Sequence record: KJ909655.1
Strand: one strand, 5' to 3'
DNA: 61,137 nt
From: Escherichia Stx1-converting recombinant phage HUN/2013
Shown here: one piece after another, positions 30,001 to 36,000 of the stretch
How positions within the stretch are numbered: position 1 is the stretch's first letter
Layout: each line of letters begins with the position of its first letter
Position numbers: made by a program

Positions 30001-33000
30001 TGTCATAGATACCAGCAAATCCGAAGGCCAGACGGGCACACTGAATCATGGCTTTATGCCGTAACATCCGTTTGGGATGCGACTGCCACGGGCCGGTGAT
30101 TTCTCTGCCTTCGCGGGTTTTGAATGGTTCGCGGCGGCATTCATCCATCCACTCGGTAACGCAGATCGGATGATTACGGTCTTTGCGGTAAATCCGGCAT
30201 GTACAGGATTCATTGTCCTGCTCAAAGTCCATGCCATCAAACTGCTGGTTTTCATTGATGATGCGGGACCAGCCATCAACGCCCACCACCGGAACGATGC
30301 CGTTCTGCTTATCAGGGAAGGCGTAAATTTCTTTCGTCCACGGATTAAGGCCGTACTGGTTGGCGACGATCAACAATGCGATGAACTGCGCATCGCTGGC
30401 ATCACCTTTAAATGCCGTCTGGCGAAGAGTGGTGATCAGTTCCTGTGGGTCGACAGAATCCATGCCGACACGTTCAGCCAGCTTCCCTGCCAGCGTTGCG
30501 AGTGCTGTACTCATCCGCTTTATACCTCTGAATCAATATCAACCTGGTGGTGAGCAATGGTTTCAACCATGTACCGGATGTGTTCTGCCATGCGCTCCTG
30601 AAACTCAACATCGTCATCAAACGCACGGGTAATGGCTTTTTTGCTGGCCCCGTGGCGTTGCAAATGATCGATGCAGAGTGATTCAAACAGGTGCTGGGGC
30701 AGACCTTTTCCCATGTCGTCTGCCAGTTCTGCCTCTTTCTCTTCACGGGCGATCTGCTGGTAGTGACGCGTCCAGCTCTGAGCCTCAAGACGATCCTGAA
30801 TGTAATAAGCGTTCATGGCTGAACTCCTGAAATAGCTGTGAAAATATCGCCCGCGAAATGCCGGGCTGATTAGGAAAACAGGAAAGGGGGTTAGTGAATG
30901 CTTTTGCTTGATCTCAGTTTCAGTATTAATATCCATTTTTTATAAGCGTCGACGGCCTCACGAAACATCTTTTCATCGCCAATAAAAGTGGCGATAGTGA
31001 ATTTAGTCTGGATAGCCATAAGTGTTTGATCCATTTTTTGGGACTCCTGGCTGATTAAGTATGTCGATAAGGCGTTTCCATCCGTCACGTAATTTACGGG
31101 TGATTCGTTCAAGTAAAGATTCGGAAGGGCAGCCAGCAACAGGCCACCCTGCAATGGCATATTGCATGGTGTGCTCCTTATTTATACATAACGAAAAACG
31201 CCTCGAGTGAAGCGTTATTGGTATGCGGTAACGCCGCGCTCAGGCGGCTTTGATAGTCATATCATCTGAATCAAATATTCCTGATGTATCGATATCGGTA
31301 ATTCTTATTCCTTCGCTACCATCCATTGGAGGCCATCCTTCCTGACCATTTCCATCATTCCAGTCGAACTCACACACAACACCATATGCATTTAAGTCGC
31401 TTGAAATTGCTATAAGCAGAGCATGTTGCGCCAGCATGATTAATACAGCATTTAATAAAGAGCCGTGTTTATTGAGTCGGTATTCAGAGTCTGACCAGAA
31501 ATTATTAATCTGGTGAAGTTTTTCCTCTGTCATTACGTCATGGTCGATTTCAATTTCTATTGATGCTTTCCAGTCGTAATCAATGATGTATTTTTTGATG
31601 TTTGACATCTGTTCATATCCTCACAGATAAAAAATCGCCCTCACATTGGAGGGCAAAGAAGATTTCCAATAATCAGAACAAGTCGGCTCCTGTTTAGTTA
31701 CGAGCGACATTGCTCCGTGTATTCACTCGTTGGAATGAATACACAGTGCTGTGTTTATTCTGTTGTTTATGCCAAAAATAAAGGCCACCATCAGGCAGCC
31801 TTGTTGTAAATGTTGCAGGTATCAAGTAAGTAATTAGATGGAGCGCCATAAATTATGAATTCATCGTTTGTCGGGTCCATCTCCATCTCTTGTCCTATTG
31901 CCATTCTTGCGTCAGTGTCGTCAGCGGCGAAGCATAAAACAGCCCACGCACCCATTGTTTTAAAAAGAACTGCAATTGGCTGTGGTTTTACTGAATTTGC
32001 GTTAGCGCGAAAATCACAAATCGCACTTTCATGAAATTCCATATATCACCTCAAATAAGTGGTTTGCTGCCTAATTTCATTTTCTGGCGACCAACACAAG
32101 TCATCTTGCTGTCAGTTGTTTGGATTTACGGTAGCCTGCCGCGTAAAGAGCTACATTTGGAAGACAAGTTGAGCCTTCATATTTTCTGGTCAACGTTGTC
32201 AGTGTTATTACTTCTGCTCTCATTGCTGGTTTGCGTTTGCATTGTAAGACCACTCGTGATGGGGTTGGCCTGTGTAGTTTGTCGGAGCTAATCGCCTCCT
32301 GACTTTGCAGGTTTGCGCGACGAGCTCTACGGCGAGAAGCTGCGGTGCCTTTAAATTCTGTTTTTCTGGACATAGATTCCTCCCGAATAAACTTTGGCGA
32401 TGCAATCTCGAAGCTCCTCCTGAGACGGTTGCTTCGGCATTGCATCCCACAGCTTATGTGGTTGGGTGATCTGGCTTTTCAGCCACGTAGTCGAGAGTCG
32501 ACGTTGTTTAAAGAGCCTGCCAGTCTGTTCCATTTGGCTTCCAGCGTCCTGCTGATGGTTAAATAGTACGATATGTACTTCACTTGGTCAATACAATTTG
32601 TTCTAAAACGGGGCGTTTTTTTTACAACGCTTTGTATTTAATAGTATTGTTTTTTAGCGTGGGTGTATTGCCTCGGCGATGTAAGGAGAGATCAGAATTG
32701 CGTTGTTTAGTGAGTTGTATCTATTTATTTTCCAATAAATACAATTGGTTATGTGTTTTTTTGGGCGAGAGGAAAAGAAAACCCGGCATGGAGGCCGGGT
32801 TGATGATTAGCGGTGTGGCCTTGAGCGATAATGCTCACACACATGTTCAAGATTTCCATGCCTTATCCGTTCATAGGCATTCACATGAACTTCTCGATCG
32901 AATTGGTCATTCAAATTGTATGTAGACATCTGTGTTTTCTCATATTGGCGGCAGCCCTACAACCGCTTGAAAAAATGTACCAGACGCGCTAAGGTTACAT

Positions 33001-36000
33001 CGCAAATATTGTGTACCTTAACAAGGGCTCCTTTTGGAGGCTCTGGTTAAACAGCATCAATGTCGGACTGGGGAGTTGGACATTGTGCTGAATGCTTTTG
33101 CATTATTGAGGCCGAACGTAAACCTTCAGAATTGAAGAGATGCGTTCGGCTTCTTCGTTTGTGATATCGTTAGGAATGCCTTTAATCGTTACTGTAACCC
33201 CTGATTCAGGTCGAAGAACTACTGGAAGATCATAGGTATGAAGTGCATTAGCCTTGCCTTCGACTTTTGTTGGTTCGCCAGTCAAATCTTTTTCCTCACT
33301 GGATTCTTTGTCAATCGGAGTGTATGGGATTTCTTCACCAGACTGGAAAGCTACAAACTTTTTGATTGCACTTTCCATGCGGCTTTTATATGCAGTAATG
33401 CTGCTGTCGCTAGGCTTCGGCTCAGTTGCGTTGATGTATCGCTCGGCAAGCTCATTCACATCAAGCTGAGTAACATCACCCATTTCCTCTTCTTGGACTA
33501 CCGTTAAGAGGCGAGCGGATGAGTTTTTTAAATTTCGAGCGGTGGCCTCCTTCATTATGTTCAGCGACATAAGCTCTTCAAGGAAGTCCTTGAATGCCTG
33601 CACGCTAACGTTTGACTTTGCCATTTGCTCTCTCTCTAAGTTATTGACTCAGATCGAGTTTATCCAGGAATTGATTTGCATGCAAGACTCAAGTCTTGAG
33701 AATTTCCGTTCAAGATCCACTCTCAATAAAAAAGGCCGCACCTCTGCGACCTTTCATCTCCTAAATCTCTTTTCTCTTACCTAAAGAAACAGCAGGCTGG
33801 GTCAGCCCTAACAACTTCAAGTGCATCGGTCAGAGAAAGCTCCGTGCTATACAGGTGTTATTTCATATCTTTTTGCATCCAATAAATTTTCCATCTGTCC
33901 AGAGAGCGGATGCACTTGATTCTTGTTGATGGCAGGACGTTTTTTCACCTGCCTCACCCTGCCATACAGGACGCTGCTCACCGATATCTATCGTCCGGTC
34001 ATTGATGTTATAGACAATATCCAGATCATTACGGATATACTCAGATGGCCTTATGCTTTCAATGAATAGATGAACTTCTTTTTGACCGCTTGATACTCAT
34101 GGCCATTAAACTCCATCTATCCTCTTTACCCAAACGTCTCTTCAGGCCATTGGCTGGCGATAACTTTCCCCACAACGGAACAACTCTCATTGCATGGGAT
34201 CATTGGATATTGCGGGTTTAGTGGTTGTAGAAACACCTGACCGCTATCCCTGATCAGTTTCTTGAAGGTAAATTCATCACCACCAAGTCTGGCTATGCAG
34301 AAATCGCCGGGCTCAACAGCTTGCTCAGGGTCAACCAGAATTAACATCCCGTCAGGAAAACTAGGTTTGGAACCTGTTGGTGCGGTCATTGAGTTACCTT
34401 CAACCTCAAGCCAGAATGCAGAGTCACTGGCTTTTTTGGTTGTGCTTACCAATCTCTCCGCATCACCTTTGGTAAAGGTTCTGAGTTCTGGAGAGAACAT
34501 CCCAGCCTGAACATGAGAAAAAACAGGGTACTCATATTGTTTTTTAACTGGGGCCGATGAGTATTCGCCAACAGGTGAAAATGTCCCGTCGTGGTTGAAT
34601 GATATGTTATCAATACCAAGGTATTTAAACACCACACCAATATCACTAAGAGATGGATGACGAGATCCGCGCAACCAGTGTCCAATTCCACCCTGCGTCA
34701 TACCTAGCTCTTCGGCTAACTTCTCTTGAGTTATGCCGAGCTCTTTCATTCTGGATCTAGCCAGTTCATACCATTTCATTTTCATGTCCTTATTATTACG
34801 CTCTGTACTGGAACCATCCATGCACAATGTGTATTTTTACTTGTATTTGAGAAGTACATATTGTATTTTTTTATTCGTGGTTACTATGGAGGGCATATGA
34901 GCAACCTACGAAAATATCGAGAGTCACTGAATATCTCTCAAACAACACTTGCTAAGGCAGTTGGATGCACACAGGGAGCTATCGGACATTGGGAATCTGG
35001 TCGTCGCTTCCCAGACCTTAAAACATGCCGTGCTCTTGTTGCGTGTCTAAACAAGTTAGGCGCAAAAGTAAGTCTTGATGACGTGTTCCCGCCGGAGCAC
35101 AAAGCCGCTTAATAAGCGGAGCCGCTCTTTGTAACAACGGACATTCGTCCTACGTCGCTGAAAAGCGAGTCCCAAGATATCTGACCAACTAAGGCCATAT
35201 GCGTTTCCACGCATACCTTTCAACTAGCTATTCACTATTGGAAATCTTAAGAAATGGAACAAACAAGTTACAGCAAACTATCACAGCGAGAAATTGATCG
35301 CGCTGAAACTGATTTACTCATCAACCTGTCAACGCTTACCCAGCGCGGTCTGGCAAAGATGATTGGCTGTCATGAATCGAAGATAAGCAGAACGGACTGG
35401 AGATTTATTGCTTCGGTCTTGTGTGCTTTCGGAATGGCATCAGACATCAGTCCGATTAGCAGGGCTTTTAAGTATGCGCTTGATGAAATCACAAAGAAAA
35501 AATCCCCGGCCGCCACCGAGGATTTTAAGCAAATTGATATGCAATTCTGAGGGAATTACTGGATCAATCCACAGGAGTAATTATGACAAAACAACTCAGT
35601 CCTTACCAGGACAAAATTCACAAACACATACTACGTGATCGCTTCCTGTCCAGCTTCAAGCAGCCTGGTCGATTCCGGGCTGAGTTGGAAAAAGTGAAGC
35701 TGATGCAGAAGGAGAAAGGTCATGAGTAACATATCTAATCTAGCCGAAGCCAGAGAGGCAAGAAGGCTACAACAACCGCATCAAAGCAGCGGTAAGGGGT
35801 ATGCCTTGCTGCACCGTAAAATTATGGATGTGCCGTTTTACAAGGACGCAGAAGCTGCGCATCTGTGGGTTCACTTAATCCTCAAAGCAAAGCATACGCC
35901 TGAGTATGTAATGACTGACGCAGGAGAAATTCTGGTAGGCAGAGGGAAGCTACTTGGCGGTAGAAACTCTCTGGCGTTTGAAACAGGACTCAAACCAGAT

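Follow-up and report, generated by a model that had tools for sequence, protein, structure and literature searches.

The closest described counterpart, by position, of the element analysed here is the rexA-rexB pair of phage lambda, which lies between cI and OL/pL on the strand of cI and shares the pRM transcript of cI. Exclusion genes of this classical kind, rexAB included, are freely deletable, and 933W stk and BTP1 bstA occupy places equivalent to the cI-pL position. In the Escherichia Stx1-converting recombinant phage HUN/2013 (KJ909655.1; the whole 61,137-nt stretch is called the window below), this position is held by a cassette that consists of a gene for a 173-aa protein, orfX, a structured leader RNA and a small downstream gene, orfY. 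Like rexAB, the cassette lies on the cI strand and is expected to be expressed in the lysogen; however, it has no RexA or RexB family match and no sequence or fold similarity to these proteins, orfX is set apart from cI by a conserved terminator, and unrelated prophage sites carry the cassette as well.

The cassette also resembles the type II toxin–antitoxin (TA) and abortive infection (Abi) modules of prophages: two co-oriented genes would share one insulated transcript, an operator-like palindrome lies at the promoter, the first product is acidic and the second products are mostly basic, and relatives occur in TA-rich islands; the reported failure to delete the upstream gene alone, set beside a tolerated loss of both genes along with the pL operon, may be a further resemblance. 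It differs from these modules in that its proteins match no known toxin or antitoxin family, a pseudoknotted RNA of 150-175 nt separates the two genes, and the putative toxin OrfY, of 40-61 aa, is represented by three or more interchangeable types of sequence. As regards type III TA systems, a tandem repeat was sought in 32930-33102 and none was found, so there is no tandem-repeat antitoxin RNA, and the Pfam scan revealed no nuclease domain in the 40-aa OrfY. We suggest, as a reading that is quite possible though short of probable, that the cassette is an autonomous three-part moron acting as a TA-like (addiction or abortive infection) module. The anatomy of the cassette, its conservation, its mobility between prophage sites, the covariation of its RNA, the coding selection on orfY and the modelled fold of OrfX are established by the analysis, and the undeletability of ECs1184 (orfX) and the presence of its protein in cultures by published work. 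The parts of the cassette are as follows:

33722..33755, minus strand: upstream intrinsic terminator, AAAGGUCGCAGAGGUGCGGCCUUU and a U-run, which stops cI transcripts and serves as the 5' insulator
33683..33698, no strand assigned: operator-like palindrome CAAGACT-N2-AGTCTTG, overlapping the -35 region
33649..33685, minus strand: candidate promoter P_X, with -35 TTGCAT (33680-33685), a 17-nt spacer and -10 TAAACT (33657-33662)
33103..33624, minus strand: orfX, 173 aa; in the AlphaFold model helices at 8-94, a linker at 102-127 and a β-β-α unit at 130-165
32930..33102, minus strand: structured leader RNA of about 173 nt, recognised by fold statistics and covariation
33079-33090 with 33052-33063, minus strand: helix P1, the long hairpin of the leader RNA
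33042-33047 with 32979-32984, minus strand: helix P2, closing the multi-element domain of the leader RNA
33036-33039 with 33028-33031, minus strand: helix P2i of the leader RNA
33015-33020 with 32990-32995, minus strand: hairpin P3 of the leader RNA
32963-32966 with 32948-32951, minus strand: hairpin P4, just before the orfY Shine-Dalgarno sequence
33024-33027 with 32955-32958, minus strand: pseudoknot of the P2 internal loop with the P4 loop
32987-32991, minus strand: unpaired UAGCG, conserved in the leader RNA
32967-32971, minus strand: unpaired UCAAG, conserved in the leader RNA
32807..32929, minus strand: orfY (H0092 in the AP000422 annotation of 1999), 40 aa, MSTYNLNDQFDREVHVNAYERIRHGNLEHVCEHYRSRPHR, His/Cys-rich, type A
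32770..32801, minus strand: downstream intrinsic terminator, AACCCGGCC-loop-GCCGGGUU and a U-run, with the stem at 32780-32801 found by a terminator scan

A preliminary description of this DNA, made from the sequence alone, had proposed a self-contained moron cassette around the 173-aa open reading frame (ORF), which is present as claimed, and this view is now well supported, since the unit has a conserved promoter region to itself, is bracketed by terminators and occurs at other moron sites. Both terminators of that description were recovered. The upstream hairpin has an 11-bp stem in the minimum free energy fold, followed by UUUUUUAUU, and its core, AGGTCGC...GCGGCCTT, is invariant across six genera (E. 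coli, Salmonella, Yersinia, Cronobacter, Morganellaceae and Serratia loci). The downstream terminator, labelled “terminator for pRM transcript” in AP000422, forms the 3' boundary of the cassette before OL/pL, and a hairpin with a U-run follows orfY in every related locus folded (14/14). Flank alignments of the same six groups demonstrate that conservation runs past the orfX stop up to the terminator. As for the promoter, its -10 is conserved across lineages as TAAACT, TAGAAT or TAGACT (TAnAnT) and its -35 as TTGnnn, and the leader CAATAACTTAGAGAGA is conserved across loci, but the hexamers of P_X are too weak for a consensus promoter scan, falling below its threshold. P_X, with a predicted start near 33649-33650, is therefore acceptable on comparative grounds only, as a promoter that is presumably used.

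The 16-bp palindrome over the -35 region was also found where it had been described, with one exact copy in the whole 61-kb window. The form AAGACT-N1-2-AGTCTT is retained in the loci whose OrfX is at least 55% identical to the window protein, while more distant OrfX clades have other, GATC-rich palindromes in the same upstream region, e.g., TTCATCGATCGATGAA. The operator type (AAGACT or GATC-rich palindrome) tracks the OrfX clade and not the orfY type, which is the pattern expected if OrfX is an autoregulator binding this operator. Control of other phage promoters by OrfX via the same site was considered and dropped, since this exact copy is the only one in the window. A separate observation is that the promoter regions of distant lineages (L063-L091, e.g., L071:2380-2480) are dense in GATC palindromes, such as TTCATCGATCGATGAA and TTGATCGATGAATCC, and that the window keeps one GATC between the P_X -10 and the start (CTCGATCTG); Dam-methylation-sensitive control of the cassette promoters is conceivable.

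The orfX gene is known as ECs1184, H0093, VT2-Sakai orf22, Sp5 ORF23 and WP_001130059.1 and is “hypothetical” in every annotation. The preliminary description recognised no motif in its product and pointed to profile and structure searches; these have revealed a core-binding-like fold, although no named family beyond phrog_2602, a PHROG family of unknown function and the only one that OrfX matches. The AlphaFold model, built from a 30-sequence alignment, has four helices at aa 8-94 (pLDDT about 90) and a disordered acidic linker (102-127) followed by a β-hairpin and a helix (130-165). As modelled, aa 8-94 form the four-helix (SAM-like) fold of tyrosine recombinase core-binding domains, and the Pfam Phage_int_SAM_1 match of OrfX is sub-threshold (14.4 vs 22.3 bits). 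OrfX differs from the recombinases that carry this domain (lambda Int, XerD, IntI4) because its domain is not basic and the catalytic domain with the R-K-H-R-H/W-Y site is missing: the protein ends at residue 173, no Phage_integrase Pfam match was obtained, and downstream of the linker there is just a 45-aa β-β-α domain. Integrase-fold phage repressors (SPbeta MrpR/YopR and phi3T SroF) are also among the closest systems. In contrast to the core-binding-fold proteins, OrfX has this domain fused to an unrelated β-β-α domain.

A word-indexed search for OrfX relatives gave 44 clusters in Enterobacterales, and an exhaustive profile search gave 651 cluster representatives with E <= 1e-3, of which 241 had E <= 1e-10. 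The best-scoring 150 representatives are almost all 160-210 aa long and are aligned over nearly the full length; none passed a Pfam threshold, and searches of PDB sequences with full-length and C-terminal profiles of OrfX returned nothing significant. Most of the invariant residues in helices 2 and 4 have basic side chains (R30, K33, R82, K89), and the invariant motifs include TARNLKNS, YKSR, RP..G and EAERI. In addition, a 21-nt imperfect inverted repeat with 76% complementarity (33108-33153, minus strand) is found inside the last orfX codons (EAERI...KVYVRPQ); its 3' arm is nearly invariant in nucleotides across genera and could thus be an RNA element overlapping the coding end.

The preliminary description saw a single ORF in the cassette, which has to be revised: before the terminator there are also the structured RNA (32930-33102) and the conserved 40-aa ORF (32807..32929). 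The window's 339-nt region 3' of orfX has a fold z-score of -4.29. Two variants of the spacer occur, a short one (about 155-167 nt) and a long one (about 174-180 nt), to which the window belongs, and their structures were derived by hand, variant by variant; RNAalifold on a mixed MAFFT alignment of both variants gave just 7 pairs. In the short variant (18 sequences), 85.8% of cells are paired vs 37-45% with slid partners, and 24 of the 44 pairs have compensatory changes vs 8-11 with slid partners. The long variant (9 sequences) has 93.6% of cells paired vs 29-47%, with compensatory changes in 12 of the 42 pairs vs 1-5. The observed pairing was attained by no shuffle of either variant (0/500 for the short, 0/500 for the long). 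Covariation is exemplified by the pseudoknot, which is found as GGAGCAC/GUGCUCC, GACAC/GUGUC, GACUC/GAGUC and GGUCUC/GAGACC, and the UAGCG and UCAAG loops are nearly universal across OrfX clades and both variants; similar UAGCG/UCAAG-type motifs are carried by alphaproteobacterial spacers. The covariance model of the short variant, R1, fails to detect the window's long variant, so that the two are linked by common architecture and motifs and not by a single model.

In its general layout this RNA is similar to ribosomal-protein leaders and H-type-pseudoknot riboswitches, being a multi-helix leader with an internal-loop-to-hairpin-loop pseudoknot located directly upstream of a start codon. It differs from the known mRNA leaders because it has neither an Rfam match nor a known ligand, and the Shine-Dalgarno sequence of orfY is not clearly occluded, i.e., not obviously sequestered in the consensus structure. 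Among the 4227 families of Rfam 15 none matched at the gathering threshold, and at E <= 10 there was just noise (E >= 0.45), limited to the terminator end of the spacer.

By position, orfY is one of the annotated genes ECs1182 and ECs1183. Its pairwise dN/dS is 0.098 in type A, 0.046 in type B and 0.055 in type C, and its variation is concentrated at third codon positions, so that orfY is a real coding gene. The window orfY matches phrog_21154 (E 5e-8), and a search with it gave only 3 protein clusters. The types of OrfY are as follows:

Type A (the window), 40-44 aa: M.TYNLN..EVHVN.YERIR.GNLEHVCEHYRSRPH
Type B, 56-61 aa: PPG[FY]RW..CRFR..RAKAGTPDSER..LDAH.YGYKCWSFPVR
Type C, 47 aa: MATTIC.KCGNSC.VIFRP[YW]I.DKNGKKRFPK.SRVFPIPVCGC
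Type D, in two alphaproteobacterial contexts: e.g., MAKRKLTPPPPGYKYIFRPWRKCPKTGDTLYAKNFGFKAWPILVPD, with motifs in common with B and C

MAFFT gave no convincing alignment of types A-D. Types B, C and D may be homologous, judging from the motifs PPGYR, IFRPW and G.KAW and a weak PHROG match (E 0.003), whose relationship to type A is at most conjectural. The isoelectric point (pI) of types B, C and D is 9.0-10.2. The orfY types are shuffled relative to the OrfX phylogeny.

With its candidate promoter and its bracketing terminators, the triad recurs in all the diverged IMG/VR prophage loci examined. A small ORF is found downstream of the orfX homologue in all 38 diverged IMG/VR loci (38/38), where orfX is 33-77% identical to that of the window, and in the 32 non-redundant loci it always starts 148-175 nt beyond the orfX stop (32/32); the orfX-orfY pair is also present in all enterobacterial genome loci examined. 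Therefore, the cassette has the adjacent conserved gene pair of type II TA systems, bracketed by terminators and probably co-transcribed. In close lineages, i.e., the six groups named above, the cassette is always located between an S24 repressor and N, which are of differing immunity types, while in distant prophages it follows replication genes (IstB-like, DUF1627, DUF977) or has tail-fibre, Big_2 or FRG-domain genes as neighbours. In the phage database, the window-type cassette is restricted to Stx phages and Salmonella phage vB_SosS_Oslo, and the L063-type cassette was not found there; the alphaproteobacterial orfX clade is absent from IMG/VR. The alphaproteobacterial homologues are chromosomal and non-prophage, being placed among BrnT/A, HicAB, PIN/RHH and TumE genes, and RNA and orfY are present in 2 of their 6 contexts. 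In one of these contigs (L021:5560-5680), a tRNA-like sequence with acceptor, D and T arms immediately follows the orfX homologue, which suggests that this homologue borders an integrated island.

Mondal et al. 2016 (PMC5155283) used sacB allelic exchange in a K-12 lysogen to delete the Sp5 genes of unknown function in-frame and without markers; nine nucleotides of the ORF were kept at either end. The deletions of ORF23 (ECs1184) and ORF21 (ECs1180) were the only two not obtained; for ECs1184 the allelic exchange never resolved to the deletion allele, and the authors considered this deletion apparently lethal (PMC5155283). The small ORFs ECs1182 and ECs1183 were left out as unlikely to be functional (PMC5155283, supplement), and the locus is not represented in a ribosome-profiling supplement on small genes of Sakai. 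A 2025 Nucleic Acids Research paper recovered ECs1184 in the total RNA-associated proteome of enterohaemorrhagic E. coli Sakai at a false discovery rate (FDR) of 0.065, below the significance cut-off (PMC7618764), and this recovery shows that the protein is present in lysogen cultures. Natural rearrangements supplement these data. In the O157:H7 strain 9234, IS1203 is inserted between cI and the cassette (about 33753-33757), just upstream of the 5' terminator, and the cassette is intact. Strain NE92 lacks everything from gam' up to this insertion point, i.e., kil, cIII, ea10, ECs1180, N, pL and the entire cassette, and recombination of one IS1203 copy with another is the apparent cause. Since NE92 lacks orfX, orfY and the pL operon together, their joint loss is viable.

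We propose that the cassette is transcribed leftward from its own promoter, insulated by the two terminators, into a single mRNA that would carry orfX, the pseudoknotted leader RNA and orfY. OrfX would be the protective component, which most likely represses the cassette promoter via the palindrome at the -35, probably as a dimer formed through its β-β-α domain, and which may also neutralise OrfY or keep the leader RNA in a non-translated state. OrfY, a Cys/His-rich protein of 40-60 aa that is basic in most variants, would be the effector and presumably toxic, and the leader RNA would hold its synthesis low relative to that of OrfX. Loss of OrfX alone would then release OrfY and kill or arrest the cell, which would explain the failed in-frame deletion of ECs1184. 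Such a module would stabilise the prophage in a lysogen, and abortive infection could follow when the supply of OrfX fails. It is possible, but on the whole unlikely, that the cassette is the founding case of a new three-component TA/Abi class, a mobile moron in which a core-binding-fold autorepressor-antidote and a translation-gating RNA control a zinc-binding 40-60-aa effector that kills the cell or blocks phages.

Several lines of evidence are consistent with this TA-like proposal. The insulated operon with its palindromic operator would count for it as far as sequence can tell, and so do the distant relatives in TA-rich islands. The reported failure to delete orfX alone, combined with the viable joint loss in NE92, speaks for OrfX as a protective partner, and the fact that ECs1184 resisted deletion, unlike classical exclusion genes, points to an antidote or regulator of a TA-like module, which could act in Abi defence. 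The autonomy of the unit at varied sites and next to an IS1203 insertion, the constant association of its three parts, the strong conservation of a small downstream gene whose expression the leader would keep low, and the detection of the OrfX protein in cultures are further points in its favour. The acidic OrfX (pI 4.85) and the mostly basic OrfY of types B-D give the charge pattern typical of type II pairs, and the mostly basic invariant residues of helices 2 and 4 are regulator-like.

A number of observations weigh against it. OrfX has no Pfam, NCBIfam or PADLOC family in library scans, neither protein is homologous to a known toxin or antitoxin family, and a structured spacer of 170 nt is atypical of type II TA operons. 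The folded domains of OrfX are neutral to acidic family-wide (median charge -0.5 for the N-domain and -1.2 for the C-domain), which is unusual for nucleic-acid binding, and in the polynucleotide kinase (PNK) assay the signal of ECs1184 was no higher than that of sfGFP, the protein being judged “not a strong RBP” (PMC7618764). OrfY of the window is near neutral (type A, pI 7.0). Nearly identical C-terminal domains of OrfX pair with three OrfY types, which argues against specific protein–protein neutralisation, and in 4 of the 6 alphaproteobacterial contexts the orfX homologue is solitary and has no RNA. Since ECs1180, which lies beyond N, is also undeletable, a regional effect (e.g., leakage into pL-N-kil) could explain both failures. 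The binding of OrfX to DNA, RNA or OrfY, the toxicity of OrfY and any defence role are inferred.

The deletion data can also be read in favour of OrfX as a lysogeny-maintenance factor that keeps the prophage repressed, e.g., by blocking read-through into pL-N-kil or by assisting cI, in which case its loss would induce or kill the lysogen and OrfY and the RNA would be accessory. This was proposed in the Sp5 deletion study (PMC5155283) and agrees with the fact that orfX and ECs1180, just beyond N, are both undeletable in the lysogen (PMC5155283), with the direction of the cassette, whose transcription would head for OL/pL and N and whose end lies some 130 nt short of OL, and with the tolerated joint deletion of the cassette with N, kil and pL in NE92. 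Nevertheless, we consider it improbable, because the cassette accompanies unrelated types of cI and N and is also found far from any repressor and even in non-prophage alphaproteobacterial chromosomes, and a function bound to one immunity circuit is not expected to travel in this way; the lack of a second exact palindrome copy in the phage is a further objection. The moron architecture and the carriage at other moron hot spots, together with the rexAB position and the neighbourhood of some relatives (an FRG-domain gene, or TA/defence-type genes), would suit a non-toxic superinfection-exclusion or defence gene, the idea of the preliminary description, in which OrfX, with or without OrfY, blocks incoming phages and the deletion failure was technical or polar. 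We regard this explanation as unlikely, since orfX resisted a markerless in-frame design meant to avoid polarity (PMC5155283), OrfX matched 0 families at E <= 10 among the 5027 models of PADLOC-DB v2, and neither protein has an enzymatic or membrane domain in the domain scans and the OrfX model.

The pseudoknotted RNA itself may be the functional core of the cassette, either sensing a signal in the manner of a riboswitch or serving as a trans-acting or processed RNA, with OrfX as its RNA-binding partner and OrfY as its output. Its strong covariation, the invariance of UAGCG and UCAAG in all OrfX clades and in the short as well as the long variant, the fact that RNA loops and protein motifs are invariant together, the related motifs in alphaproteobacterial spacers and the borderline enrichment of OrfX in the RNA-associated proteome mentioned above (TRAPP; PMC7618764) fit such a role. 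However, the PNK signal of OrfX equals that of the sfGFP control (PMC7618764), its domains are not basic, the Shine-Dalgarno sequence of orfY shows no obvious sequestration in the consensus structure, and solitary orfX homologues do without the RNA, so that we find this explanation, too, hardly probable.

A search of the literature and family libraries revealed no description of the triad, of its RNA, of the core-binding-like fold of OrfX or of the coding status of orfY; orfX and orfY were already annotated, but uncharacterised. There is a substantial chance that the cassette defines a new class. New to Pfam, PADLOC and Rfam are a protein family of 651 cluster representatives and a structured RNA class, and a small ORF earlier dismissed as non-functional is found to be under strong purifying selection. 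If the TA-like reading is true, it would explain the published undeletability of ECs1184 in the Stx2 phage Sp5, and the three-component class would be widespread in enterobacterial prophages, with the Stx2 phage of O157 Sakai among its carriers and relatives in Alphaproteobacteria. A module that stabilised Stx prophages or aborted superinfection would matter for how Shiga-toxin phages persist and spread in O157:H7.

The source phage is of the Stx-converting lambdoid type, and its immunity region is 99.9% identical to that of VT2-Sakai/Sp5, of the Stx1-converting phage AP005153, of Nil2 and of many O157 prophages; the region was found in 235 of 5426 complete E. coli genomes. The neighbours of the cassette are as follows:

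34126..34827: cI repressor (HTH and S24), flanking the cassette, from a family scan of ORFs
33863..34087, minus strand: remnant of a decayed DUF3024 gene (Pfam E 1.8e-5, profile positions 11-55 of 112), outside the cassette
about 32564-32639: OL/pL, from the AP000422 annotation
32101..32445: N antiterminator, flanking the cassette on the other side, from the family scan of ORFs
31791-32042, minus strand: ECs1180 / Sp5 ORF21, 83 aa, between N and ea10, phrog_2471, without a Pfam match

With cI on one side and N and OL/pL on the other, the locus corresponds to the lambda rexAB position, as the preliminary description had placed it. ECs1180, as the sole other Sp5 gene reported to be undeletable in the lysogen, may affect the reading of the ECs1184 result.

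The 375 nt from cI to the upstream hairpin are the site of the DUF3024 remnant and not an untranslated tail. In Morganellaceae prophages the DUF3024 gene is intact (113 aa) and directly follows cI, while at the decayed gene PGAP annotates a 53-aa CTG-start remnant, and strain YB14-1 has a further 140-nt deletion there. A second terminator-like hairpin, GGGCUGACCCAGCCU with a U-rich tail (33794-33808, minus strand), falls at the end of this remnant, about 50 nt upstream of the cassette terminator.

Elsewhere in the phage, matches at the Rfam gathering threshold were obtained at 19932-20106 (minus strand), 45207-45416 (plus strand), 40390-40588 (plus strand), 22728-22816 (minus strand) and 31122-31180 (minus strand); as listed, they are sok, STnc100, isrK with C4 antisense RNA, sRNA-Xcc1 and the lambda cIII thermoregulator. 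The match to the sok antitoxin RNA implies a hok/sok module, and the C4 antisense RNA was matched together with its a1b1 targets (antirepressor control).

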